DNA of 18,314 bases, from NCBI GenBank assembly GCA_049598495.1, contig JBMYNR010000033.1, positions 1 through 18,314 of the forward strand, written 5' to 3'. Each line of letters starts with the position of its first letter. Position 1 is the first letter of the stretch. Positions 4,168 to 18,314 of this stretch are shown in pieces. A model generated the notes under the pieces. It searched no databases, was not told the origin of the DNA, and was given only the letters and a program-made list of their open reading frames with translations. Position numbers and translations under genes: made by a program. This DNA is from Opitutales bacterium. Lineage in GTDB: Bacteria; Verrucomicrobiota; Verrucomicrobiia; Opitutales; Coraliomargaritaceae.

Positions 4168-4300
4168 TGATGCAAGCGCTCAGCTGTATCATCCAGCGTA
4201 AGCTGAATGAAGACCTTGGATCACACCAACATTCAACGAGGTCAACCCTTCCATGAAGTGGCATGGCTCAAGCTTGATCGGGCCCAAAATGGACGCCCGG

Positions 4301-4386
4301 AGTTTTATAATAAATTTACATTAAAAGCCTTTATAAACTGTATTATTAATGCTTTATTAATAATTCTCCATTTAACCTACTACATA
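4301..4386 (+). promoter_or_regulatory. AT-rich promoter/operator region of the pilin operon
   Basis: A sharp AT-rich island immediately upstream of the pilin ATG. It contains TATAAT (4306-4311), TTTACA (4315-4320) and a perfect 9-bp inverted repeat ATTATTAAT-N5-ATTAATAAT (4342-4364). Confidence 0.55.
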
Positions 4387-5100
4387 ATGAAAAAGAAAAA
4401 CAACCCACAAGGATTCACACTGATCGAAATGATTGGTGTTCTCGCCATCATCGGTATTCTGGCCGCGGTAGTGGCCCCCCGCGTCATCGAATCGATCCGA
4501 GACGCTAAGGTGACCTCGGCAGTTGCATCCGTCAACTCCGCCAAGACCGCTGCAATCAACTACTACCAACGCTATGACAATTTCCCAACCGACACCGAAA
4601 CACAAGCAGCAGGGGTGTTGGATTATAAAGCGGATCCAACTAATCCACAGGCTTACACACCGACTGTCGGCGATGTGAGCTTCGGTGATATTCTCGTTTA
4701 CCAAGCTCAACTACTGGAGCAGGAAAAGACGCCGGTTGGCCGCCCTGAAGGTGCCCTTGAGCATGCGATTGGCTGTGCCACGGTTGGCGATGCGCTCATC
4801 GGTGGAGCCACCTATGGGGGCACCACAAGCACGATGCGCTTCAAATCAGCAGGCACAGGCACACGGGTTGTTTACTACTTTATGCCTAATTTGACCACAC
4901 AAGAAGCGGCTGCCCTTGCCACCAAGGTAAATGGACCCTTCGAAAGCTCCGCTGTGGCTGACACGGATTTCATTGAAGCGTCCTTAGCCGGTAGCGGGAT
5001 CGATTCAACCAAAGGCGGCCTTGAAGGTGCCAATGCATGGTTTGCCGTAGGAGATGGAACCGGTGAATACCACGCCTATCTATACGTCTCGCACCAGTAA
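4387..5100 (+). CDS. Type IV pilin / pseudopilin, probable major subunit (237 aa)
   Basis: Class III signal peptide MKKKNNPQG|FTLIEMIGVLAIIGILAAVVAP, with a basic leader, G-1, F1, E5 and P22. First gene of the operon. The true start is the ATG at 4387, not 4207. Confidence 0.9.
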   Translation: MKKKNNPQGFTLIEMIGVLAIIGILAAVVAPRVIESIRDAKVTSAVASVNSAKTAAINYYQRYDNFPTDTETQAAGVLDYKADPTNPQAYTPTVGDVSFGDILVYQAQLLEQEKTPVGRPEGALEHAIGCATVGDALIGGATYGGTTSTMRFKSAGTGTRVVYYFMPNLTTQEAAALATKVNGPFESSAVADTDFIEASLAGSGIDSTKGGLEGANAWFAVGDGTGEYHAYLYVSHQ

Positions 5101-5132
5101 GCCGGACGAACACTGCGGCTAGTTCGAATCCA

Positions 5133-6878
5133 TTGGAAACGAACCCTCAAAAACAATCGATAAACGGCCAGGCCTCTGAAAATTTGGAGGCCTGGCTTTT
5201 ATCCAAGCATATCCTCACGGCCTCGCAGGCCGAGTTGGCTCGGCGCGAAGGCACCCGACTGGGACTCAGTTTTTCGGAGATCGTTCAGCGCCTAGGCCTC
5301 GTTAGTAGCGAGGAACTCTCCGAATTCCGCTCCGTCCGCGGGCAATTGCGCACGGCGACTGAATTTATTCAGGACGGCCAAATCGAGGGGCAACAACTCA
5401 GTCTCCGCCGCCTCAGTCTCGATGAGGGGCTACGCTCCACCCTTCCTGCGGAGCTGTGCGAGAAATTAACCGCTATTCCGGTCGCTGAGCGCGATGACCG
5501 CCTGTGGATTGCCTGCGCGAACCCCTTCGACCTCCCCACTATCAAACGCCTCGAGACGGCTGCTCGAAGGTCGATTGAAGTATTGCCCGCTTCCGAAACG
5601 GACATCCGGCTAGCCATCAATCGAAACTACAGGGCACGCGATGAGCTCTATGAGGCGGTTGGGGCCTTCATCCAAATGGATGCAGAGGCACTCAACGAAC
5701 AAAGTCAGGACGATCCGCCGATGATCCGCCTGGCCGAGCAGATCCTCATGCATGCCGCCACCCGGGAAGCGAGCGATGTCCATCTACATCCGGAAGAACG
5801 CTTCTTCCGTATCCGCCTGCGGGTGGACGGTGTATTGGAGGAGGGGCTTCTCTTGCCCAGTGCGATACGGAGCGCACTGACAGCGCGCTTTAAAATCCTC
5901 GCGGGTATGGATATCGCGGAAGACCGACTACCACAGGATGGCCGTATTCGCTTTGCTGTGGGAAGCGAAGAGATCGATGTTCGTGTGTCCAGCCTCCCCT
6001 CCTCCAATGGTGAGAGTGTCGTCATGCGCCTTTTGGATCAGTCGCGCCTCAAGTTGGAACTCGCCACGCTCGGTTTTTCCGAAACACAGCAAAGAGAGTT
6101 TGAAGACGTATTGGATCAACCACACGGAGTCTTTTTGATCACAGGTCCGACCGGTAGCGGTAAGACCACCACACTCTATACCTTACTCTCGATGGTCGAT
6201 GCCGAGGAACGAAGTGTGTTCACTCTGGAAGACCCCATTGAATACCGCCTACCCCTGATTCGCCAAACTCAGATCAAAGATGAAATCGGGCTAAGTTTTG
6301 CCAATGGTCTGCGTACCCTGCTACGCCAAGACCCGGACGTTATTCTCGTAGGTGAAACCCGTGACCAAGTGACCGCAGAGTTGATGATTCGTGCCGCACT
6401 CACCGGTCACCTGGTCTTTTCCACGCTACACACCAACGATGCGATCAGCGCGGTGCCTCGACTCACGGATCTGGGCATCCCTCCTTACTTGCTCTCCAGT
6501 AGTTTAATCGGCCTAAGCGCACAGCGACTGGCAAGACGCCTCTGCCCGGTCTGTAAGAGCGAACATTCCTTAAGCCCCGATGAGTGGCTCGCATTGGGCG
6601 GAGACGATCGAGAAAACAATATCACCGTCTACCAAGCCACCGGCTGTCAGGCCTGCAGCCAGAAGGGCTACAACGGACGCATCAGCCTGGCAGAAATCAT
6701 CCGTATCGACTCGGGTCTAAGAAAACAGATTGATGACCACGTTCCGACATCACAACTCAAGCACTATTTGCATGAACAAGGCGTCATTCTCATGCGCCAA
6801 GATGGTTTGTTAAAAGCAGAAGCGGGACTCACCAGTATCGAAGAGGTCGGGCGAGTCATTCAACTGGAAGCTCATTAG
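5133..6878 (+). CDS. PilB/GspE-family assembly ATPase
   Basis: ASDVHLHP, RLPQDGR, Walker A GPTGSGKT, TLEDPIEY, LRQDPDVILVGE (Walker B), TGHLVFSTLHTND (His box) and the tetracysteine CPVC...CQAC. TTG start. Confidence 0.95.
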   Translation: METNPQKQSINGQASENLEAWLLSKHILTASQAELARREGTRLGLSFSEIVQRLGLVSSEELSEFRSVRGQLRTATEFIQDGQIEGQQLSLRRLSLDEGLRSTLPAELCEKLTAIPVAERDDRLWIACANPFDLPTIKRLETAARRSIEVLPASETDIRLAINRNYRARDELYEAVGAFIQMDAEALNEQSQDDPPMIRLAEQILMHAATREASDVHLHPEERFFRIRLRVDGVLEEGLLLPSAIRSALTARFKILAGMDIAEDRLPQDGRIRFAVGSEEIDVRVSSLPSSNGESVVMRLLDQSRLKLELATLGFSETQQREFEDVLDQPHGVFLITGPTGSGKTTTLYTLLSMVDAEERSVFTLEDPIEYRLPLIRQTQIKDEIGLSFANGLRTLLRQDPDVILVGETRDQVTAELMIRAALTGHLVFSTLHTNDAISAVPRLTDLGIPPYLLSSSLIGLSAQRLARRLCPVCKSEHSLSPDEWLALGGDDRENNITVYQATGCQACSQKGYNGRISLAEIIRIDSGLRKQIDDHVPTSQLKHYLHEQGVILMRQDGLLKAEAGLTSIEEVGRVIQLEAH

Positions 6879-6888
6879 TCCACCGAAG

Positions 6889-8097
6889 ATGCCTGAATTC
6901 AACTACACTGCAGTCTCCCTCGATGGTAGCCTAACTAAAGGCAACCGAGAAGCGGACTCGGTCAAACGCCTGACCGATCTACTCGCTGCAGAAGGACTCG
7001 AACTGGTTCAAGCTGATTACAGTGATTCACGGACCAAAAAACTTGAATCGCGGCAAAAATTAAAAACCTCCGAACTGGCGAACCTTCTCTTCCAGGTGGG
7101 CATTCAACTGAGGGCTGGCGTGCCGATCACAGAGGCCCTGCGTTCGCGCGAGGGCGAGGAAAACTCCAAAGCAGAGTCAACGATCCGACAGCGTTTAAGC
7201 GAAATGCTCGAACAGGGCACGCCACTGAGCAAAGGTCTGGAAAGATTTCCCCGGGCCTTCCCGAGCTACGTCCGCAATATCACTAAGGTTGCCGAACAGA
7301 GTGGTTCTCTTGATGAAAATTTTATCGAGCTTCGTGACTATCTCGAGTGGATGGACCGGAACTGGAAGGCTTTCAAACAGGCGATGCTCTACCCCGCATT
7401 CGTGGTCGCCGCTCTAGTTATCTTTATTTTCATCGCATTGCGGTTCGTCTTTCCGACGGTCACAGAACTGCTTTTTGAATTGGATATCCCCTTGCCGTGG
7501 ATAACCCGCGTAATGATCGCAGCAAGCGATTTTGTGGTCGAATACTGGGGCATTATTCTTTCGGCTATCGTCTTCGGCCCCGCCTGCTTACGGCTATTAT
7601 TTCGAATTTCCAAACGGGCGGCACTCCTTCGGGATCATTTTCTCCTCAAACTTCCCTTTCTGGGCGACGTACTCCTCACACTCGCAGTTTCCCGTTTTCT
7701 GCGTAGCCTGATTCTTATGCAAAAGGCCGGCATCGTGATCACGGATTCACTCGCGATGGCTCGCGAGGTCGTCGGAAACGGCGTTATCGAGCGCAGCGTT
7801 TCACGGATTGAAACCGCTGTATCCAATGGCTCAAGCATGAGCAGCAGCATGTCCAAAGATCCGTTTTTTCCTCCACTTGTCCGCACCATGGTCGGCGTGG
7901 GCGAGCGCAGCGGATCCCTAGACACCTCTCTGCAAGCTGTCGTTGATTATTATGACGATTTAGTGCCACGCAAAATTAAGACTTTCTTCGCGGTCCTGGA
8001 ACCGGGCTTGATCGTTTTAACGGTATTCATGGCGGGCATCGTCGCAGCCGCCGTATTTTTGCCGCTTGTCAATATGCTCAGCCCCAGCGCTTTCTAA
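6889..8097 (+). CDS. PilC/GspF-family inner-membrane platform protein
   Basis: Two repeated T2SSF domains (AGVPITEAL...AEQSGSLD and AGIVITDSL...GERSGSLD), AMLYP and LEP motifs, three hydrophobic segments; 402 aa. Confidence 0.95.
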   Translation: MPEFNYTAVSLDGSLTKGNREADSVKRLTDLLAAEGLELVQADYSDSRTKKLESRQKLKTSELANLLFQVGIQLRAGVPITEALRSREGEENSKAESTIRQRLSEMLEQGTPLSKGLERFPRAFPSYVRNITKVAEQSGSLDENFIELRDYLEWMDRNWKAFKQAMLYPAFVVAALVIFIFIALRFVFPTVTELLFELDIPLPWITRVMIAASDFVVEYWGIILSAIVFGPACLRLLFRISKRAALLRDHFLLKLPFLGDVLLTLAVSRFLRSLILMQKAGIVITDSLAMAREVVGNGVIERSVSRIETAVSNGSSMSSSMSKDPFFPPLVRTMVGVGERSGSLDTSLQAVVDYYDDLVPRKIKTFFAVLEPGLIVLTVFMAGIVAAAVFLPLVNMLSPSAF

Positions 8098-8104
8098 TTA
8101 CCCC

Positions 8105-8836
8105 GTGCTTCACCACACCCCAGTCGTCCCCCCCGGTCGATGTCGCACCGGATTCACGCTCATTGAAATGATCGGTGTGCTGGCTATCATTGCCATTCTT
8201 GCCGCGGTCATCACACCCGCCATCGTCAAGTCAATTCGCGAAGCAAAAATCACCTCGACGGTTGGTTCCATACATGCAGCCAAAGTCGCAACGAGTAACT
8301 TTTTTCAACGATACGAGCAGATACCACTGGATGCCGATATCACCACTGTTTACAATTACAAGCTAGATCCCGGAGGGAATCCACCCCCTAGCTACACCCC
8401 GGACGTCGGAAGCTTGGATTTTGGGGATATCCTGGTCTACCAATCTCAGCTCCTCGAGACGGAAAGCTCTCGAATTGGCCGCACAACTGACTCTCTATGC
8501 CATGCAATCTGCAGTCATCAGGTGGGTGATACACTGATCGGCGGGGTGGTTTACTCAGGCTCTGTCAATGGGATGCACTTTAAGTCAGCGGGTGCAGCCG
8601 TTCAAATCGTCTATTATTTCATACCCAATCTAACAACCAAAGAAGCCGCGGGCATCGCCATTCAAATCAATGGCCCATTCAGCCAAGACGCCCTCAGCGA
8701 ACGGGATTTTATTGAAGCAACACTTGCGGGCCAGGGAATCAGTAGTATCGGCGGCTTGGAGGGCGCCGACGTCTGGTTCACCGCAGGAGATAACCCGGGA
8801 GAATACCATGCTTATGCCTACGTCTTTCATCGTTAA
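8105..8836 (+). CDS. Second type IV pilin, full-length paralog of 4387-5100
   Basis: RCRTG|FTLIEMIGVLAIIAILAAVITP. It shares FGDILVYQ, FKSAG, YYF.PNLTT.EAA, NGPF, DFIEA, GGLEGA and GEYHAY blocks with the first pilin. The in-frame GTG at 8105 (7 nt after the upstream stop) is the likely start. Confidence 0.87.
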   Translation: MLHHTPVVPPGRCRTGFTLIEMIGVLAIIAILAAVITPAIVKSIREAKITSTVGSIHAAKVATSNFFQRYEQIPLDADITTVYNYKLDPGGNPPPSYTPDVGSLDFGDILVYQSQLLETESSRIGRTTDSLCHAICSHQVGDTLIGGVVYSGSVNGMHFKSAGAAVQIVYYFIPNLTTKEAAGIAIQINGPFSQDALSERDFIEATLAGQGISSIGGLEGADVWFTAGDNPGEYHAYAYVFHR

Positions 8837-10097
8837 AGAAAATATTCTACCAACGGCTCGCATTCAAAAATCCAAGCGTGCCGGCTTCACTTTACTGGAG
8901 TTAATCGGCGTGATGGTGATTATCAGCATCCTGCTCGCAGTCGCACTCCCGAGCACGATCGATTTGATTCAAGTACAACGCTCGGCCAATGAAGCAGCCG
9001 AACTCCCAAAAATCGCCGAAGCGCTCAAGCGCGGCATGCTACGCGAACAGATTTTTCCTATCTATCAAAATGATGCCAGCGTGTCGACCGATGGCAGTGA
9101 CGCCTACTGGTGGAATCTGGCTGCCCGCCACGGCGGTGGCAGTGCCAATGAACTGCGCTATCCGCTTGGCGTGCGCCCAGGAGCAAACAATACACGAAAG
9201 CTTTACTTTGCGAACACCGCTTGGTCAGGAGACAGTTTCTTCGAGATAGTCAGCGGTAATCAATCGAGTTGGATTGCCGATTTTCAGGATCCATCTGAAT
9301 TACGACTTCTACTGCTCTCCACCACCAGCTCTGATCTGGAACTACCGAATACCCTCAATACCACCCGTTTCAATAGATTCTGGAACGACTGGGCGGTCGG
9401 CAGCGACGGTAATCCCGCCACAGGAAGCTGGAACAGTTACGGCCTCGGAAATGACTGGGCCGGACGTGCCGCTGAATTGAATGTCGAACGCATCGACCTT
9501 CGGGATTGGCTGTGCACGGTGGTCATTGAGAATCGCCGAGCGATTGTGGAGGCGAGCGGGACTCGATTTGATAATAATAATCAACTACTACCAGAAGACC
9601 TAGGAGGCGATTGGGAATCAGGTAGCATTTACGCCTATACAGAGAATCAAAATGGAGCAAAAATTGTTCTTTCGACGACAGAGGGTACTGACGGTAACAC
9701 ACCACCAAATGTTGTTAGCCGCATCGAGGCAGTTACCCTATCCAATCGCGGACGCGTCACCGATGAAACTGAAGCTGCTAATATTGTTATTGGTGGATCA
9801 AAAATAACGACTGACCCTGGCCCTCCTGTTGAGACCACGTCTACTCCTACCATAGTTAAAATCCCATTGAGCTTAACCGACCGCGCCCCGATGGCACTCC
9901 TTAACCCAAATGATTCAACGACCCCTTCGCCGTTGACCGGCTGGAGCAATAACGACGATTATATCCAAAACCGCTACTTTCTGCGCAGTCAGGAATTGCT
10001 GCTTGGCGAGCCTTGGACTCAAACCGAGGTCGGTATTTTCACGATCAGCGAAACTTTCAGCACCTTACGCTTTGACGGACTCGAATGGCAGTATTAA
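8808..10097 (+). CDS. Large minor pilin / pilin-like protein with extended C-terminal domain (~429 aa)
   Basis: KSKRAG|FTLLELIGVMVIISILLAVALP class III signal. The ATG at 8808 is preceded by GGAG (8798-8801). The start is uncertain (8808 or 8814) and overlaps the upstream gene. Confidence 0.82.
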   Translation: MLMPTSFIVKENILPTARIQKSKRAGFTLLELIGVMVIISILLAVALPSTIDLIQVQRSANEAAELPKIAEALKRGMLREQIFPIYQNDASVSTDGSDAYWWNLAARHGGGSANELRYPLGVRPGANNTRKLYFANTAWSGDSFFEIVSGNQSSWIADFQDPSELRLLLLSTTSSDLELPNTLNTTRFNRFWNDWAVGSDGNPATGSWNSYGLGNDWAGRAAELNVERIDLRDWLCTVVIENRRAIVEASGTRFDNNNQLLPEDLGGDWESGSIYAYTENQNGAKIVLSTTEGTDGNTPPNVVSRIEAVTLSNRGRVTDETEAANIVIGGSKITTDPGPPVETTSTPTIVKIPLSLTDRAPMALLNPNDSTTPSPLTGWSNNDDYIQNRYFLRSQELLLGEPWTQTEVGIFTISETFSTLRFDGLEWQY

Positions 10098-10111
10098 CTG
10101 CGTGATCGTAT

Positions 10112-11452
10112 ATGGCACGTAGCACCATCATCTGGAATCACCGCACCCTGCAAATCTGGCGCCTACGAGGCTCCCGTGCAGAACTTCTTCATGAAGCGGA
10201 AGTCGACTCGGTCGATGCAATGATATCGATCTTGGAGAGCGAGGCGAAACGACTCAAAATATCCAAATTACGCGTCTATCTGGATCGTCCTGAACTCGAC
10301 CATCATATCGAGCGGATCCCTGAGATGACCCCGAGGTTGCGACAGCAGCTGTTAAAACAACGCAAAATAAAGCTCTACGGGGATGAGGACCGGGTCTGGG
10401 TCAGCCACGACATGTCCTTAGATCCGGCAGGTGCACAGCATTTCTATTTTATCGGCTCGCTACCCAATCTTATCTCGCATGCCATTGCTGATTGGGCTTT
10501 TGAAAATGCCATCCTTCTGGAAGGTATTTTTAGCCTACCACTGGCCCTCGCCACCGCGACAGAAGCAAAGGTAACAAATGAAGCCTCCATGCGTTTCCAA
10601 GCTCTGGGTCGGGCTGGTTATTTAATCGCACGTAACGAAGCTGGGAAGCTTCTCTTCGTAAGTCGTCTGGACACGCACAGGCCCAGCGAGGAAGCTCTGG
10701 ATGCAAGTGCACGACGCCTCCTCCTCTTCCTGGAACAGGAATTCGCAGTCACACCAAAACTGGTTCAAGGCGAGGAAACAGATGAGTCGCAGGATGCCTT
10801 GATTGTGGCTCAGATGAGTCAAAAGAAGGCAGAGCCCGGACTAAAACTTATTTCAGGATTGGACCGAAATCGACAGAGTCGACAACGCCTTCGGCATCGG
10901 GCTTTCGCCTTACTGAGCATCGGGCTCATCATCACCCTCTACGCCAGCCTACCACTCATGCAGAAAAAGAAGGCCCTGCAGCTGAGCCTGAGTGATCTTA
11001 GCGCACAAATTAAGACGGAAGAGCTTTCCCTACAATTGGTCGAAGAACGCATTGAGAGAATGCAGAAATATAACAAGGTCATCGAATTCAGTGAAGGTCG
11101 CGAAACGATCGATACCGAAGGCCCCATCCCATCACCTCTTCTGGTGATCATGCGGGGTCTGTCGAACGCATTGCCAAATTTTGTCGAGCTGGACAGCTAT
11201 GAAGGCTCAATTGACCTGACGAACGCCACCGCATCCATTACCATGGAGGGACGCCCCTTGACCGCAGATATTAATCTCTCCGAGAGAGTCCAACAAATGC
11301 ACGACGGGCTAAAAAAACAGGGTTGGTTGATCAGCGAACCTGAGCTCAGTTTCGAAAAGAAATCAGGCGGCTCCAGATTTTCTAATCAACGGGGAGAACT
11401 GAGAAAATTCATCCTTCGATTTCAAATCAACGCGAAGGGAGGCGCAAATTAG
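10112..11452 (+). CDS. Bitopic membrane protein, probable PilM-PilN fusion / GspL-like alignment subunit
   Basis: A ~260-aa soluble N-terminal domain, a single TM (AFALLSIGLIITLYASLPLM), a coiled coil, then a PilN-like C-terminal region (LSNALPNFVELDSY...ITMEG). The assignment rests on architecture and operon position. Confidence 0.6.
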   Translation: MARSTIIWNHRTLQIWRLRGSRAELLHEAEVDSVDAMISILESEAKRLKISKLRVYLDRPELDHHIERIPEMTPRLRQQLLKQRKIKLYGDEDRVWVSHDMSLDPAGAQHFYFIGSLPNLISHAIADWAFENAILLEGIFSLPLALATATEAKVTNEASMRFQALGRAGYLIARNEAGKLLFVSRLDTHRPSEEALDASARRLLLFLEQEFAVTPKLVQGEETDESQDALIVAQMSQKKAEPGLKLISGLDRNRQSRQRLRHRAFALLSIGLIITLYASLPLMQKKKALQLSLSDLSAQIKTEELSLQLVEERIERMQKYNKVIEFSEGRETIDTEGPIPSPLLVIMRGLSNALPNFVELDSYEGSIDLTNATASITMEGRPLTADINLSERVQQMHDGLKKQGWLISEPELSFEKKSGGSRFSNQRGELRKFILRFQINAKGGAN

Positions 11453-11454
11453 TC

Positions 11455-12090
11455 ATGAGAAAGCTAGTCTGCCGCAGCTATAATCTAATCGCATCCTACC
11501 CGGTGCTGGCCCTACTTCTGCTCGCGATTGTCACCCTGTTATATCTGGGTCAACAGTATCGACCGATCGAACAAAAAGAACAGCGCGAATTGGCCAGAAG
11601 TATGCAACTCCGGCAAGAACGACAGGCTTTAGAGCAAGAGCTCACCAACGTGGAGATGTCGGACTTGTCGAAACGCTATGCACTCTTCAACGAGAATTTT
11701 CTTTCGGAAGATGATGAGGATCGATCTTCGCTGATTGAAGACATCTCCAGCGCGTTGAAAGCCTATGGTTGGGAGCTTCAGCAACATTCTTTTGAGCCGC
11801 TGGAAGAGCCAGAATCACTGGCCGACACAGATAATAGTGAGGCCATTCAAATCCGAGCCAATTTGCTTCAGCTTGTCGCGACTGCCGATAATCCGGAGAC
11901 CCCACCTGAGGAGCCCTTCCTACCACTCTATTCACTATCCGAGGCGAAAAAATACTTATGGAGCCGTAGTCCGAATAAAGAATATCAGAGAATCAAAATT
12001 GCTCGTAGCGAGACGGGCTTTACAATGGAGGCTACCTTATTCCTGCCCATCGTCGACCCGAACTTTTCAAAACAAACAGTGAGTGAGTAA
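11455..12090 (+). CDS. Membrane-anchored protein, probable PilO/GspM-like subunit
   Basis: N-terminal TM (VLALLLLAIVTLLYLG) followed by a coiled coil; 2 nt downstream of the PilMN-like gene, with GGAGG upstream. Confidence 0.55.
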   Translation: MRKLVCRSYNLIASYPVLALLLLAIVTLLYLGQQYRPIEQKEQRELARSMQLRQERQALEQELTNVEMSDLSKRYALFNENFLSEDDEDRSSLIEDISSALKAYGWELQQHSFEPLEEPESLADTDNSEAIQIRANLLQLVATADNPETPPEEPFLPLYSLSEAKKYLWSRSPNKEYQRIKIARSETGFTMEATLFLPIVDPNFSKQTVSE

Positions 12091-12096
12091 CCCGGG

Positions 12097-12927
12097 ATGC
12101 GTAAATTACTGAACAATCCTGCAGTCGTCCTACCTCTTGCGTGCATCGCACTACTATGGGTCGCCCATAGCTACGGGTTGTCCGACTTTCTTCTGAAGCA
12201 ATTTTTCGGGCAATCGAGTCGAGGAAATACCCTTCCCTTCGAGCAAAAGAACAAATCGAATGCTTCAACAAAAAGTGAAAAGGCAATGGAAACCCTCATT
12301 GCGGATCGTTGGTTGATTTCAGCCTGGGCCCGAGCAAGTGTCGCCAAAAATGAGCCCTTTGTCGCGAATGGCCTGCAATCCGAAGTCGAATTGCCAACCA
12401 TCACTGTCCCCGAGATCAAAGATGAAGAGATGGTCATCGTGGACAAGGAGACATTTGATGCAGCGCTTGTCTCCACGCTTGGTCTGGACCAAGAGGGTTA
12501 CTTCGTTGTATTTGAGAATGTTCTCAATCAACCCATCCGAAAAAGAGTGGGAGACGTGATTTACCTTCAAGGAAGTGGTCCCTTAATGATTCCAACCTTT
12601 GGAATCGCAGAAACCAGAAGGAATCCCGCGGAATTTAAGGCGCAGGCCGCTTCAATTATCGCCGGCTTTAAATTACTGGGTGTCGGCACAGAAAATGTTC
12701 AAGACTCGGGTGTCGCATCGTCTCAAAACACAAATAATATCGCCTTCATCGAAGACGCTGATGGCAACATGGGGATTTTTAAACAGGGTCAGTTGGTTCA
12801 CCGAAATCCCAATCTCGGGCTCGACCAAATCTTCAAGGATGCCGACAGAGACCGTGTTATTCTCATAGATCCATTCGGAAGTGAATATGAACTGATCTCG
12901 CTCACTGAAACTCGGAAGCTAAATTAA
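12097..12927 (+). CDS. Membrane-anchored hypothetical protein, possibly PilP/GspC-like
   Basis: N-terminal hydrophobic segment, a linker and two beta-rich regions (YFVVFENV...KRVGDVI and IAFIED...FKQGQLV) reminiscent of PilP/GspC HR folds. Lies 6 nt after the previous gene. Confidence 0.45.
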   Translation: MRKLLNNPAVVLPLACIALLWVAHSYGLSDFLLKQFFGQSSRGNTLPFEQKNKSNASTKSEKAMETLIADRWLISAWARASVAKNEPFVANGLQSEVELPTITVPEIKDEEMVIVDKETFDAALVSTLGLDQEGYFVVFENVLNQPIRKRVGDVIYLQGSGPLMIPTFGIAETRRNPAEFKAQAASIIAGFKLLGVGTENVQDSGVASSQNTNNIAFIEDADGNMGIFKQGQLVHRNPNLGLDQIFKDADRDRVILIDPFGSEYELISLTETRKLN

Positions 12928-12969
12928 GCATTTTGCCATGCTCCCTCATTGAGATGAACCCCGTATACA

Positions 12970-13950
12970 ATGGAAATATCTCAGCGTGATTCTTTATCCA
13001 GCTGTGACCTGGAGCAACTTGCCAAATTGGCCTGGCGCAACAGTGCCCGCTGTATTGGTCGATTGTTCTGGGAAACACTCGAGCTTCTCGATGCACGCTC
13101 CGCCTCATCCCCGGATGAAGTTTACGAAGCCTGTGTTCAACACCTCATTCATGCGACCAATAAGGGTCGAATCAAATCAGTTATTACCGTATTCGCAGAA
13201 ACAGAACCGGAAGAGCGGGGGATTCGGATCTGGAATACGCAACTGATTCGATACGCAGGCTACCGTGCCGCGGACGGCTCCGTTCTTGGTGATCCGGATC
13301 AGGCGGCCTTTACCGAGCGAGCCATCGAGATGGGCTGGCAGCCACCACGCGAGCGATCTGCCTTTGATCCACTGCCCCTCATCATCGACTTCCCGGGGTA
13401 TTCCCCAAAACTATACCAGCTGCCCCAGGAAGCGATCCTAGAGGTGCCCATCTCCCACCCCGAATTTGAATGGTTTAAAGAACTCGGGCTAAAATGGCAT
13501 GCCGTCCCTGTGATTTCAGACCGGGCATTGGTTGGTGAGGGTCACCGTTTCAATGCAGCACCCTTCAGCGGCTACTATATGGGAACGGAAATTGCCTCGC
13601 GTAATTTTGGAGATGAGAAACGCTACAATATTTTACCTCTCATCGCGGAGCGGATGCAACTCGAGCGCTCGAAGAGAAGCACGCTCTGGAAGGACCGTGC
13701 ACTGGTCGAAATCAATACCGCCGTGCTTCATTCCTTTCGTGAAGCTGGAGTGAGTATCGTCGATCACCACACCGCCTCCGAACAATTCATGCGACATCTG
13801 GCAAACGAAGAGAAATGTGGCCGCGATGTACCGGGTGAATGGCCTTGGTTGGTTCCTCCCATGTCCGGCTCTGCCTGCCCGGTCTTTCACCGTTACTACG
13901 ACAAATCCCGCCCCCTACCGGCATTTATCGACCAAAAGCGTGCCTGGTAA
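12970..13950 (+). CDS. nos: Bacterial nitric oxide synthase, oxygenase domain only
   Basis: Heme-thiolate motif AWRNSARCIGRLFW (Cys28), ATNKGRI, IWNTQLIRYAGY, FDPLPL, APFSGYYMGTEI (substrate Glu207), LWKDRALVE, IVDHHTA, EWPWLVPP and PVFHR. Colinear with the Bacillus-type NOS as I recall it. Confidence 0.96.
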   Translation: MEISQRDSLSSCDLEQLAKLAWRNSARCIGRLFWETLELLDARSASSPDEVYEACVQHLIHATNKGRIKSVITVFAETEPEERGIRIWNTQLIRYAGYRAADGSVLGDPDQAAFTERAIEMGWQPPRERSAFDPLPLIIDFPGYSPKLYQLPQEAILEVPISHPEFEWFKELGLKWHAVPVISDRALVGEGHRFNAAPFSGYYMGTEIASRNFGDEKRYNILPLIAERMQLERSKRSTLWKDRALVEINTAVLHSFREAGVSIVDHHTASEQFMRHLANEEKCGRDVPGEWPWLVPPMSGSACPVFHRYYDKSRPLPAFIDQKRAW

Positions 13951-13983: not shown

Positions 13984-15156
13984 TCAGGAATTTTTTTCCA
14001 CGAAGCGCTCGATGCGATCGGTTGCTTCGATGATACGGTCATAGCTTGTGGAGAAACTTGCACGGGCAAAACCGGCCCCGCTGGGTCCAAATGCCGTGCC
14101 CGGAACGACGGCAACTTCTTCTTGGTCCAGGAGACCCTTGCAGAAATCAAGCGAGTCGAGACCCGTCGATTCAATCGACGGGAAGGCATAAAAGGAACCT
14201 TTCGGCGAATGGCAGTTAAGGCCGATTTCATTAAAACGACGCACGATCAAATCACGGCGGCGGTGGTAGGCCTCCTTCATTTTGGCCACCGCGGGCGCAC
14301 CGTTTCTCAATGCCTCGATGGCTGCTTCCTGCGAGAGGATCGGCGCGCAGAGCATACTGTATTGATGCACCTTCATCATGGCCTCAATTAGGACCTGCGG
14401 ACCACAGGCATAACCGATACGGAAGCCCGTCATGGCAAAGGCCTTCGAGAACCCATGCAAAAAGATCGTGCGATCCTGCATCCCGGGTAAGGATGCGATA
14501 CTGGTGTGCTCCCCTTCAAAAGTGAGCTCGGAATAAATCTCATCGCTGATCACCAAAAGATCTTTTTCGACAGCAAACTTTGCCAGACGCTCTAATTTGG
14601 CCCGCTCCGTTACCCCGCCCGTTGGATTGGTCGGAAAGTTGAGCAAAAGAACTTTTACACCGGGCTCCCACGCTTCAATGACCCGATCCGGATCGATGCC
14701 GAACTCATCCTCGGCCGAGGTCGCCACAGCGATCGGTTCTGCATAGGCCAGCTTAATACTCGGGCTATAAGAAACGTAGCACGGCTCATGGTAGAGCACC
14801 TTGTCCCCGGGGTTGAGTACGGCACGCAAAGCAATGTCGAGTGCCTCGGAGACACCGACTGCAACTAGAATATCCGTCTCCGGGTGGTAGCTGATACCGA
14901 AATGATCCTCTACGTATTTGCTAATCTCGCGACGTAGTCGAATCAGCCCTAAATTATCCGTGTAACTGGTTTTCCCCTTCTCGAGGGCAAAAATGGCCGC
15001 TTCACGGATATGCCAGGGTGTGACAAAATCCGGTTCGCCGATACCGAGCGAGATGGCCTGTGGCATCGCTGCCACGATAGCGAAGAAATCACGAATACCC
15101 GAACGAGGCAGACCCTTCACGTGATCCGCCACAAATTGTTGACCTTGATCACTCAT
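13984..15156 (-). CDS. PLP-dependent aminotransferase class I/II (AlaT/YugH-like)
   Basis: ISLGIGEPDF, NFPTNPTG, SDEIY, GFSKAFAMTGFRIGY (PLP lysine) and VPGTAFG...RAS motifs. Confidence 0.93.
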   Translation of the reverse strand: MSDQGQQFVADHVKGLPRSGIRDFFAIVAAMPQAISLGIGEPDFVTPWHIREAAIFALEKGKTSYTDNLGLIRLRREISKYVEDHFGISYHPETDILVAVGVSEALDIALRAVLNPGDKVLYHEPCYVSYSPSIKLAYAEPIAVATSAEDEFGIDPDRVIEAWEPGVKVLLLNFPTNPTGGVTERAKLERLAKFAVEKDLLVISDEIYSELTFEGEHTSIASLPGMQDRTIFLHGFSKAFAMTGFRIGYACGPQVLIEAMMKVHQYSMLCAPILSQEAAIEALRNGAPAVAKMKEAYHRRRDLIVRRFNEIGLNCHSPKGSFYAFPSIESTGLDSLDFCKGLLDQEEVAVVPGTAFGPSGAGFARASFSTSYDRIIEATDRIERFVEKNS

Positions 15157-15803: not shown

Positions 15804-16694
15804 CTAGGCTCGAATGAAATCTTTAATTTCCCGCAGTGCCGCGTAGTCGGCATCTTCTAGAATATAATGACCACAATCCTTATACAGACGAACCTCTGCC
15901 TCCGGGAAGATCGTTTTCCAGCGCTTTAAAAAATGGAGGTTAAAGCAAAAGTCCTTACCACCCCAAACCAGTTGCACGGGCTTAAGTTTCAACCGCTCGA
16001 GCCCACTTTCGACATCAAGCAACTCAGCATAGGATCGGTGCGATGCATTCAAGGGGATGTCTTTGACAAAGTTCCAGACCGCGACACGGTCACCCCAGGA
16101 TCGATAGGGCCAGAGGAAGCCACGCCTAACCACCGGTGACAGAGGCACTTTAACGGCCATATTGACCGCGGGCCCGGCAAACCCGTTGAGCGCACGAATA
16201 ATAAATTCGCCCAGAAATGGCAGTTTGATCGCCGCAATTCGCAACGGTATCCGCTTTGAACGAAAGGCTGCAGTATTTAGCAAAACGAGCTTTTCCAGCG
16301 CCTCAGGGCGACGGCCCGCAAGGCCACATCCGATGGCCCCACCCCAATCATGCACCACCAAACTGAAACTCGATATGTCCAAATAATCGATCAGCCTTTG
16401 CACATCATCGATGCGTCGTTTCAAGCCATAATCATAGTCCTTTGGTTTGTCGGAAAGACCACAACCGACATGGTCCGGCACGATACAACGGTAGCCCGCT
16501 GACACCAGTTCATTGACTAGATTTCGATAATAGAACGACCAGGTCGGATTGCCGTGCAATAGCAACACAACCGGCCCCTGCCCCTCATCGAGATAGTGCA
16601 TCTGCACGCCTCCGGGCTGCTCAAAAAGATTGCCGGCGTAAGGGTATTCCAGCCGAATATCCGGCGGTAATTGACTGGCTCGTGATCGAATCAT
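15804..16694 (-). CDS. oleB: OleB-like beta-lactone decarboxylase (haloalkane-dehalogenase-like alpha/beta hydrolase)
   Basis: HGNPTWSFYYR, PDHVGCGLSDKP, HDWGG (Asp nucleophile), WGGKDFCF and CGHYILED. ATGA overlap with the oleA stop (16691-16694); alternative start at 16706. Confidence 0.82.
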   Translation of the reverse strand: MIRSRASQLPPDIRLEYPYAGNLFEQPGGVQMHYLDEGQGPVVLLLHGNPTWSFYYRNLVNELVSAGYRCIVPDHVGCGLSDKPKDYDYGLKRRIDDVQRLIDYLDISSFSLVVHDWGGAIGCGLAGRRPEALEKLVLLNTAAFRSKRIPLRIAAIKLPFLGEFIIRALNGFAGPAVNMAVKVPLSPVVRRGFLWPYRSWGDRVAVWNFVKDIPLNASHRSYAELLDVESGLERLKLKPVQLVWGGKDFCFNLHFLKRWKTIFPEAEVRLYKDCGHYILEDADYAALREIKDFIRA

Positions 16695-17731
16695 ATCTGC
16701 GGCCACTCCAGGGCCATCATAATGCTGCTCAATCCACTCCCAATCCCAAGTAGGGCCGCTTTTTGCCCCTCAATGTAAGCACCCTGCTCTATGGCTGTCG
16801 CCAAGGTAATCGGGCAGGACACCGAGCCCACATTGCCGAGCGTCTCGAAGGTCGTAAAATCCTTCTCCAAATCTAAGCCGAGGGCTTTGAAAAGTTCACG
16901 CGAGTGCGCTTTCCCTACTTGGTGGGTGATCACCCGGTCAGGTGTCTCCGGGGTCCAGCCCGTCGCATCCATGAACTGCGCCCAGGCCCTTGTGGCCACC
17001 CCGATCCCCGCAACCAACAGCTCCTCCGAATCCGTCAGCATCTCGAGCGCATCGCCCGCACTGTCCCCCTGACAAAGCTCGTTGTGCGAGGTATCCGTCT
17101 CGACCACGGCTGCAGTCATCAAAGGGCAGGATTCAGACGTCAGGTCTTTCCGGCAAAGCACGGCCGCCACCGCCCCGGCCCCAATCGTTAGATTCGCGAA
17201 GTAGGGCTTAATTGTCTTCCGCGTGAGCTCAGGGTTTTGCAGCTCTGCGATGGTATTCTCGACCAGCGGCCGCCCATCTTCGCCCGAACAGATCAAGGCC
17301 CGTTCGATCTGGCCACTCTCGATCATACTGCCCGCCACAACCATGGCATTGAGAAAACCGAGACAGGCATTGGACACATCGAAGATCTGGGTCTTCCCGG
17401 AGAGCTTGAGCAGGCCGTGGACATACGCAGCCGTGGCAGGCTCAAGCCGGTCGCGGCAGACGGCCGAGTGAATCAGTAAATCGATCGACTCGCGATCGAA
17501 TGAGGACTTCGCAAGCGCAGCTTCACCTGCTTTGGCTGAAGCGACCGAGGCGGGTGTGCCCCGAGGGAAGAAACGGCGTTCACGAATGCCTGTCATTAAT
17601 TCCAAACGCCCCTCGGGGAGACGGAGACGCTCGTAGACAGGCGCCAGTTTCGCCTCCAGATCCGCCGAAGTCCACACCTCCTCCGGAAGCGCGTAGGCGA
17701 TCGATTCAATGGCGACTTGGGTGAATTCCAT
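16691..17731 (-). CDS. oleA: OleA acyl-CoA condensing thiolase (FabH-like)
   Basis: EPATA (OleA catalytic Glu), FDVSNACLGF (Cys), ITHQVG (His), GNVGSVS (Asn) and LLGIGSGL; directly upstream of an OleB-like gene. Confidence 0.88.
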   Translation of the reverse strand: MEFTQVAIESIAYALPEEVWTSADLEAKLAPVYERLRLPEGRLELMTGIRERRFFPRGTPASVASAKAGEAALAKSSFDRESIDLLIHSAVCRDRLEPATAAYVHGLLKLSGKTQIFDVSNACLGFLNAMVVAGSMIESGQIERALICSGEDGRPLVENTIAELQNPELTRKTIKPYFANLTIGAGAVAAVLCRKDLTSESCPLMTAAVVETDTSHNELCQGDSAGDALEMLTDSEELLVAGIGVATRAWAQFMDATGWTPETPDRVITHQVGKAHSRELFKALGLDLEKDFTTFETLGNVGSVSCPITLATAIEQGAYIEGQKAALLGIGSGLSSIMMALEWPQI

Positions 17732-17790: not shown

Positions 17791-18314
17791 CTACAAATCC
17801 AGCGGACTCATCATCTCCTTCTTCGTTCGGCTCTGCACGGTATGTGTGTAGATCATCGTTGTCTTGATATCCGAGTGCCCGAGTAATTGCTGAATCGTGC
17901 GTAGATCGACATTCGCCGCGAGCAAATGGCTGGCAAACGAATGACGAAAGGTGTGTGCCGTTACACGCTTTGATATCTGGGTGGACTTCACGGCCATTCG
18001 CAACACACGGCTAAAGTGCTGCTGGTAGGCATGATGCCGCCGGAATTCCCCATCATCAGGGACGAGCGTCAAGGTCTTCGCTGGGAAAACCCACTGCCAG
18101 CCGTAGTCTTTCGCCTCCCGACGTGCCCGCTGCCTTCCTAGCGTGTCAGGCATAAAAGCACCACCGAAATCCTCCACCAATAGATCGCGCTCCAACTGCC
18201 CGTGCACCCGGGCTAACTGATCTTTGAGCCGAGACTTCAACGCAGTAGGCATGGGAACGGAACGATCCTTTTTCCCCTTTCCATCGTGAATGATTACCAA
18301 ATTCTCCTCGAAGT
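17791..18314 (-). CDS. intI: Integron integrase (tyrosine recombinase), 3' part; 5' end lies beyond the window
   Basis: DGKGKKDRSV, the IntI-specific insertion WQWVFPA...RRHH, HTFRHSFASHLL, IQQLLGHSDIKTTMIYTH (catalytic Tyr) and terminal SPLD. The frame stays open to the window edge (FEENLVIIH). Confidence 0.92.
   Translation of the reverse strand, partial: FEENLVIIHDGKGKKDRSVPMPTALKSRLKDQLARVHGQLERDLLVEDFGGAFMPDTLGRQRARREAKDYGWQWVFPAKTLTLVPDDGEFRRHHAYQQHFSRVLRMAVKSTQISKRVTAHTFRHSFASHLLAANVDLRTIQQLLGHSDIKTTMIYTHTVQSRTKKEMMSPLDL

Follow-up and report, generated by a model that had tools for sequence, protein, structure and literature searches.

The window analysed here is the whole 18.3-kb contig JBMYNR010000033.1 of Opitutales bacterium GCA_049598495.1, an assembly of 1.75 Mb and 95% completeness that is labelled G000 among the genomes we surveyed; homolog names place the window in the Verrucomicrobiota. 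It carries a gene for an oxygenase-only nitric oxide synthase (NOS), nos, directly behind an eight-gene operon for a type IV filament. We favour the reading that nos is a passenger gene on the pilin transcript and give it a probability of about 0.5. According to this reading nos would have been laterally acquired and have landed behind the last gene of the filament operon, it would rely on read-through from the pilin promoter for its expression, and its product would have no dedicated role in building the filament. A sequence-only reading of the same DNA had proposed an NO-linked system of filament and NOS. The adjacency itself holds up, but a conserved system is not supported: NOS of three clades does recur beside the operon, and in most genomes with both modules no linkage was seen.

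Linkage of NOS and the filament operon

We surveyed 101 genomes of the window's family, with 367 sampled genomes of the order outside the family for comparison. NOS had been thought uncommon in Gram-negative lineages, which fails for this family: 37 of the 101 genomes carry it, compared to 8 of the 367 outside the family, mostly genomes below 3.2 Mb. A pilP-like gene of the operon was found in 39 family genomes and both modules in 24. No linkage was seen in 20 of these 24 (the distance is 35 kb in G016 and 330 kb in G008), and 15 of the 39 operon-bearing genomes have no NOS match. The arrangement of the window occurs in two of the 24 genomes and any linkage in four; fragmented assemblies could hide a few further cases, mainly upstream ones. 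In G000 and G012 nos lies directly downstream of the operon and co-oriented with it (gaps of 42 and 55 nt), while in G088 and G089 it lies upstream and divergent, 2.3 and 0.9 kb from the first pilin gene. Co-occurrence of NOS and operon at the genome level was dropped as evidence because rhodopsin co-occurs equally (18 of 27 genomes, compared to 24 of 37 for NOS). For rhodopsin, the sole control gene family run for linkage, none of 18 genomes had gene and operon on one contig, versus 4 linked genomes of 24 for NOS, a difference that is not significant (p 0.12, or 0.24 without G000).

Related genomes show the operon end without nos. In G082, G083 and G084 the pilP-like gene is followed after 13–14 nt by the block of aminotransferase, Lrp, hydrolase and FabH genes also seen in the window, with no nos between; since these genomes belong to another genus, the empty site is one of synteny and not of nucleotides. 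A lone pilin gene is kept at the aminotransferase-block site in G022. In G011, the rpoB sister of G000, no nos lies between the pilP-like gene and the contig end ∼800 nt away; the genome carries a different NOS elsewhere. G073, whose operon is closest to that of the window, has no NOS match (genome 88% complete).

Origin of nos

NOS is a highly mobile gene in the window's family. Family NOS sequences fall into at least eight clades with 17 distinct placements among 35 loci, derived from 34 of the 37 NOS genomes, and monophyly was rejected in the approximately unbiased (AU) test (p-AU 1.7e-7). The NOS of the window groups with that of Prosthecobacter and Akkermansiaceae (SH-like approximate likelihood ratio support, SH-aLRT, 97–99; 69–77% identity), apart from the family copies, to which it is only 45–55% identical. 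Related short forms of the enzyme also occur in cultured Luteolibacter and Haloferula strains. Because this short clade is broad outside the family and absent from the other family loci, nos of the window is likely, judged by its sequence, a xenolog imported from a short verrucomicrobial clade. That NOS here would be an N-terminally trimmed xenolog had escaped the sequence-only reading. The first NOS tree lacked 12 loci, which the motif pattern had missed; a later tree added three rows of genus g19, by which the seven g19 rows missing from the first are represented. The trees are unrooted, and the donor lineage is therefore unproven.

Neighbourhoods of related NOS genes point away from pilins. 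A survey of NOS homologs for recurrent linkage to the pilin family had been suggested earlier; none of the 21 loci with at least 68% identity to the window NOS has pilins beside it. Five of the 21 have H-NOX and an HNOBA kinase adjoining nos; in several of the rest the neighbours are a LuxR regulator and a GAF/PAS kinase. Outside the family, prepilin motifs were found in 0 of 163 NOS loci, which have flanks of 1.5–9 kb where contigs allow and include many Bacillota. Exceptions by tblastn are G322, described below, and metagenome locus L236 with a weak ATPase match. NOS adjoins H-NOX and an HNOBA/PAS hybrid kinase in loci of Prosthecobacter/Verrucomicrobiaceae metagenome-assembled genomes (L063:5554-6102, L064:7312-12821, L066, L069 and L073), and the same neighbours stand beside NOS in L036:6739-10300 (G022). 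These loci are candidates for a make-and-sense NO module with an oxygenase-only NOS. NOS in freshwater Verrucomicrobia metagenome-assembled genomes has already been published (PMC5673642).

The junction between the pilP-like gene and nos

The junction comprises the following features.

12097..12927, + strand: PilP/GspC-like gene, last filament gene (structure alignment of the model)
12928..12969, + strand: gap of 42 nt that holds a weak 5-bp stem and lacks a consensus promoter and terminator
12970..13950, + strand: oxygenase-only NOS, 326 aa, short verrucomicrobial clade (PF02898)
13984..15156, − strand: aminotransferase, convergent, core gene, on the other side of the junction

The coordinates bear out the description given earlier: nos starts at 12970, 42 nt after the end of the pilP-like open reading frame (ORF) at 12927, on the same strand and in the same frame, as the ninth gene of the unit, and the next gene is convergent. 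That gene, the aminotransferase, lies 33 nt beyond nos and is matched in 94 of the 101 family genomes. Although the two frames agree, we rejected a NOS that is fused to the pilP-like ORF or translated through from it, because two stops intervene and the gap holds an in-frame one. An assembly chimera is unlikely as well: the NOS and pilP-like 90% clusters, drawn from NCBI, JGI, ENA and Logan sources, share seven identically sized longest contigs, where identity of contig is taken from identity of size.

The 5-bp stem reported for the gap is present (12927-12942), though no better than in shuffled sequences (z −0.51). A consensus scan of the 42 nt found neither promoter nor terminator, in agreement with the sequence-only reading; a looser script gave one hairpin with a T-run in 12918-12997 (−9.3 kcal/mol), the T-run lying inside nos (12990-12997) by inspection. 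These absences carry little weight: of 426 convergent gene ends just 65 (15%) show a terminator-like site, and a Shine–Dalgarno (SD)-like word was seen at about 13% of 1464 starts. Lack of a terminator and of a ribosome binding site was set aside as evidence, being uninformative in this genome. Expression of nos by read-through from the pilin promoter is plausible.

Alternatively, the two could be plain neighbours: nos would be driven by a promoter of its own, located in the gap or shortly upstream of it, and the spacing would reflect genome compaction. The gap is the widest in the unit (the others are 2–32 nt or overlapping), an AT content of 56% upstream of nos (62nd percentile of promoter regions, 90th percentile of internal junctions) is compatible with a promoter, and the codon usage of nos lies at the 29th percentile versus the 2nd–5th for the pilO- and pilP-like genes. 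By our own rough gene caller, gaps of at most 42 nt separate 37.5% of 957 co-directional pairs and also 40% of 213 convergent pairs, which are never co-transcribed and yet equally close. In contrast, just 4.4% of 228 divergent pairs have gaps this short, no consensus promoter was found, and 0 of 25 promoter-enriched hexamers occur in the 120 nt upstream of nos. We consider an own promoter unlikely.

Beyond the aminotransferase, the window holds on the minus strand (15804-17731) a FabH-like gene (PRK09258 over cut-off) paired with an alpha/beta-hydrolase gene, a pair kept with Lrp and aminotransferase across the family; we take it to resemble OleA/OleB of olefin synthesis. At 17791-18300 (−) the contig end truncates an integron-type integrase (a partial match to TIGR02249, E 4e-54, below cut-off). 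Comparable integrases stand 1.5 kb from nos in G093 (L145) and ∼17 kb from it in G016 (L175/L035) among small ORFs, hinting at a cassette-like spread of NOS. For G000 itself an origin of nos as integron cassette was rejected, as the integrase orientation would put its array beyond the contig end; no attC-like end was seen after nos in an inspection by eye only.

A short clade of bacterial NOS

The nos product matches PF02898 with E 1.9e-136 and 455 bits (cut-off 22.7) over model positions 50-361 of 362. Its ORF is bounded by stops and has no fused reductase domain, and seven full-length alleles are of the same length. The heme ligand C28, the substrate residue E207 and the pterin-site residues R211, W291 and W293, which were also aligned to nNOS, are invariant in 118 of 118 aligned sequences, the alignment consisting of the 118 best hits (120 listed, two fragments left out). 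Gln91, Asn212 and the bacterial Ile at the Val/Ile switch (Ile182) are also kept. The Ile/Val and Asn/Asp differences of bacterial NOS are as given in PMC9500659. An AlphaFold model has a mean predicted local distance difference test (pLDDT) value of 87.8 and a Foldseek template modelling (TM) score of 0.90 to nNOS. A homodimer model with heme scored 0.80 versus 0.00 for the best control, with at least 97% of contacts agreeing between runs and pLDDT of at least 92; 20 of 30 solved homodimers reach this mark, as does 1 of 23 monomers, and likeness to solved NOS dimers may explain the pass. We predict that the nos product is a functional oxygenase that would act as a dimer and make NO from arginine.

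In the window NOS the heme motif comes after only 21 residues, compared to at least 56 in the other 34 family loci examined. About 45 N-terminal residues are missing (the Pfam match begins at model position 48–50), and residue 14 aligns to residue 62 of the Geobacillus enzyme 2FLQ. The short N-terminus is clade-wide, with a median of 25.5 residues and at most 45 in 100 of 110 sequences with the motif, which rules out a one-off truncated pseudogene. None of the 117 aligned clade members keeps the Trp five residues before the substrate Glu, which is replaced by Tyr in 55, Phe in 33, His in 28 and Val in one (Tyr202 in the window NOS); at the substrate-side Tyr position, 116 of 118 aligned sequences carry His. 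Two other family NOS clades also have His at the relay-Trp position, so this substitution is not unique to the short clade. The replaced Trp is presumably the position of W372 in human iNOS. In iNOS, W372 relays electrons from FMN to heme (bioRxiv 10.64898/2026.04.06.716795). We infer from the alignment that the reductase-docking face has been rebuilt in the short clade. With the NOS of Bacillus subtilis, Geobacillus (2FLQ) and Staphylococcus aureus the window enzyme shares the key residues, the lack of a reductase domain and the NOS fold, and it may form a homodimer as they do; it differs in lacking the N-terminal segment of ∼45 residues and in the replaced relay Trp. In other verrucomicrobial genomes NOS domains stand inside frames of 884–1075 aa (L393, L396 and L315 in G730, G621 and G428), which are probably reductase fusions.

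One could also regard nos as a decaying remnant of a module of NOS, H-NOX and kinase that has lost its sensor, the enzyme being inactive or on its way out. Its N-terminus is the shortest of the 35 family loci and no NO sensor was found in the genome. Moreover, the NOS 90% cluster has 14 members, of which seven are full length; on two contigs nos is split into pieces of 81+206 aa, one further member seems to be frameshifted and another two seem to be truncated at contig ends. The premature stops fall at the same residue in two different alleles, and one allele changes an invariant tryptophan; a full-length pilP-like protein lies on a contig of the same size as one split-nos allele. However, shortness of the N-terminus is a property of the clade, the invariant catalytic residues are all kept in the window, seven alleles are intact, codon usage is already host-like and the homodimer model scored well above its control, with the reservation given above. 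We judge decay to be improbable. The split alleles, if real, would mean that nos is dispensable in some strains, in line with a passenger gene.

Partners for NO in the genome

Signalling through H-NOX or NosP and nitration chemistry had been suggested as uses of NO. Domain searches of G000 found no H-NOX (PF07700), FIST/NosP (PF08495), P450 (PF00067), globin or truncated globin (Bac_globin), and no GGDEF (PF00990), the one domain of c-di-GMP enzymes searched for. Both routes are therefore left without known partners. No biosynthetic cluster adjoins nos in the window. The earlier proposal to look for partners in the genome thus failed for H-NOX/NosP and for a stand-alone flavodoxin of PF00258, which was not found in G000, and succeeded with two CysJ-like diflavin proteins (FMN/FAD/NADPH).

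Electrons for NOS would arrive in trans, most likely from one of these two flavoproteins. One of them is encoded within a cluster of nitrate transporter, nitrite reductase and nitrate reductase genes. This nitrate/nitrite assimilation cluster (L385:771-11610, contig C14 of G000) also has an unusual 4Fe-4S/DmsC-anchor gene; its CysJ-like diflavin and the cluster are candidates for the NOS electron donor and for a sink of NO oxidation products, respectively. NO may serve general redox-stress protection whenever the filament operon is on or, alternatively, nitrogen salvage through the nitrate/nitrite assimilation locus. Stress protection (PMC9500659, PMC4436077) or salvage of arginine nitrogen (cf. 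PMC6104048) would be the roles left.

Recurrence of NOS at the operon

Several observations weigh against a mere passenger. NOS of three separate clades, 46–51% identical between groups, flanks this single-copy operon, and a shared origin of the linked NOS genes was rejected for each union tested (p-AU 1e-40, 3e-4 and 3e-7; the groups were named after the first tree had been seen). Three of the 17 placements are at the operon. With G000 removed, two further hits among 13 placements have p of about 0.0005 under uniform placement; under a hotspot null, in which 2–4% of insertions fall near the operon, the same 2 of 13 give a marginal p of 0.03–0.09. In G322 a nos gene (tblastn) faces another pilB-pilC pair in convergent orientation. 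In genus g19 the filament operon has a FIST-domain gene as its direct neighbour, the AT content upstream of nos would fit a promoter region as well as an internal junction, and the broken nos alleles may be assembly errors.

This evidence bears on a selected coupling of NO production to the filament system, either by repeated recruitment of NOS or by in-place xenolog replacement in the G000/G012 lineage, that is, the exchange of a gene by a xenolog at its site. NO from piliated, attached cells could control attachment and detachment, protect on particles or algae, or signal to a partner organism; in G000, which has no H-NOX or NosP match, it could act via the single Rrf2-family regulator or S-nitrosylation, for example. 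Among the neighbours that recur from one NOS clade to another the operon alone is single-copy (the others were kinases, AAA ATPases and fucosidases), nos has the same position in G000 and G012, whose operons form one clade as do their rpoB genes, and a FIST gene with a hybrid kinase flanks the operon in at least eight g19 genomes. On the other hand, linkage was not seen in most genomes with both modules and operons without a NOS match are frequent, as counted above, and the arrangements differ (downstream or upstream). FIST, with matches in 39 of 101 genomes, is resident in the family, and the operon joined the g19 gene in one event. G000 gave no match for a c-di-GMP synthase, H-NOX or FIST, its one Rrf2 protein scores 43.7 versus the NsrR cut-off of 182, and the species cluster contains split nos alleles. 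Selected coupling is in our view a tentative second reading, less probable than a passenger gene, and keeps this weight because of the recurrence of NOS at the operon in three clades. The g19 loci themselves (L163-L168, L174, L371, L377) show a gene with FIST and FIST_C domains and a divergent hybrid kinase at the pilP-like end of the operon.

The type IV filament operon

Eight genes at 4387-12927 form a type IV filament unit consisting of three pilins, PilB/GspE, PilC/GspF and three proteins without Pfam match. Upstream of the pilP-like gene and nos, the order is as follows.

4307..4386, + strand: AT-rich leader, likely operon promoter region (81% AT)
4387..5100, + strand: pilin1, large, major pilin-like (PF07963 and TIGR02532 over cut-off)
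5133..6878, + strand: PilB/GspE assembly ATPase with MshEN-like domain (PF00437, E 1.2e-125; PF05157)
6889..8097, + strand: PilC/GspF platform protein (PF00482, E 8.3e-42)
8105..8836, + strand: pilin2, paralog of pilin1 (PF07963; GTG start at 8105 inferred)
8814..10097, + strand: pilin3, large minor pilin (PF07963; start inferred)
10112..11452, + strand: PilM/PilN (GspL)-like, a lead only (Atlas neighbours)
11455..12090, + strand: PilO/GspM-like, named only by its position between the M/N-like and P-like genes

The AT content of the leader exceeds that of essentially all of 410 divergent-head regions in the genome. The start of pilin1 was set from the sequence at the ATG at 4387 instead of the longest-ORF start at 4207; pilin2 is missing in many relatives. 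For the M/N-like protein, Atlas neighbours at 0.94–0.95 carry PilM_2 (26%), PilN (25%) and GspL_C (20%), a lead only; it has no match in Pfam or to Protein Data Bank (PDB) sequences, and its family profile matched nothing among solved structures (best E 0.71). The position of the PilO-like gene is kept in relatives, and its product has no Pfam match. For the PilP-like protein a membrane helix is predicted at the N-terminus, and its C-terminal part is a beta domain of HR type; in VIA-align its model gave middling Z values of 7.8 to both PilP 3jc8 (root mean square deviation 3.8, 74 aligned) and GspC 3oss (2.5, 65 aligned). Eight of nine VIA-align rows at Z of at least 5 are of PilP, GspC or GspB type, and Foldseek with the same model gave no match at E ≤ 0.001.

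Prepilin motif, extension ATPase and platform protein are all present. The operon itself has no secretin, peptidase or retraction ATPase, matches to which lie elsewhere in the genome; one secretin and one prepilin peptidase on other contigs of G000 would presumably serve it. As in type IVa pilus and type II secretion system (T2SS)-like operons there are pilins with N-methylation motif, an extension ATPase, a platform protein and a PilP/GspC-like protein, whereas the pilins of the window are large (237–430 aa) and the M/N- and O-like genes escape Pfam. In the MshEN-like N-terminus of the ATPase (5133-5460) we saw by inspection no RLG motif, which we take to be the c-di-GMP motif of MshEN domains; this is in line with the lack of a GGDEF match in the genome.

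The operon is patchy in the family and its tree conflicts with that of rpoB, so it appears mobile like NOS. It is broken into several short ORFs in G015 (L049) and G107 (L164) and reduced to one pilin in G022 (L295), and appears to decay in these lineages. In genera g16, g6 and g19 (L169-L174) it travels with an ABC1 kinase, in some cases also with a secretin or S8/PPC peptidase gene; these neighbours are possibly an older, larger form of the filament island.

Known NO systems and meaning of the finding

Three known systems invite comparison. Like the filament here, the MSHA pilus of Vibrio cholerae is of type IV; its ATPase MshE carries an MshEN domain, to be compared with the MshEN-like domain of the window. 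In V. cholerae NO acts on MSHA pilus retraction via CdpA with its NosP domain (PMC8851539); as described in the abstract that circuit has no NOS gene, and G000 has no FIST or GGDEF match. Silicibacter TrichCH4B has a biofilm pathway of NOS, H-NOX, kinase and c-di-GMP (PMC4436077). It likewise is a Gram-negative aquatic bacterium with endogenous NOS, and relatives of the window NOS adjoin H-NOX and an HNOBA kinase. In contrast, SiliNOS has a fused reductase, whereas in G000, without H-NOX or GGDEF match, the neighbour of nos is a filament operon. TxtD/TxtE and RufN/RufO, finally, are nitration clusters of NOS and P450 (PMC9500659), alike in having an oxygenase-only NOS embedded in an unrelated gene cluster; G000 differs in having no P450 match and no biosynthetic cluster beside nos.

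What lifts the locus above the ordinary is the threefold recurrence of NOS and the trimmed NOS clade. Were coupling true, we know of no earlier case in which NO made by the cell itself is tied genetically to a type IV filament. A broader version holds that the operon attracts NO chemistry time and again (three NOS genes unrelated to each other and the g19 FIST) and that small pelagic verrucomicrobia make NO when piliating, for attachment or algal signalling, in G000 without H-NOX, NosP or c-di-GMP, through a minimal NOS with a docking face rebuilt for another electron donor, such as a CysJ-like diflavin; we regard this as doubtful. Our literature searches, which covered mostly papers outside subscription, found no description of the short NOS clade or of a NOS-pilus operon.

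Genes brought together in a new operon are often unrelated, as PMC1480536 cautions. If nos is a passenger, the window would be a clear case of this and a warning against reading function from adjacency. A solid by-product is the widespread verrucomicrobial clade of ∼320-aa NOS without the N-terminal segment and the relay tryptophan, which bears on the question of which reductase feeds stand-alone bacterial NOS.

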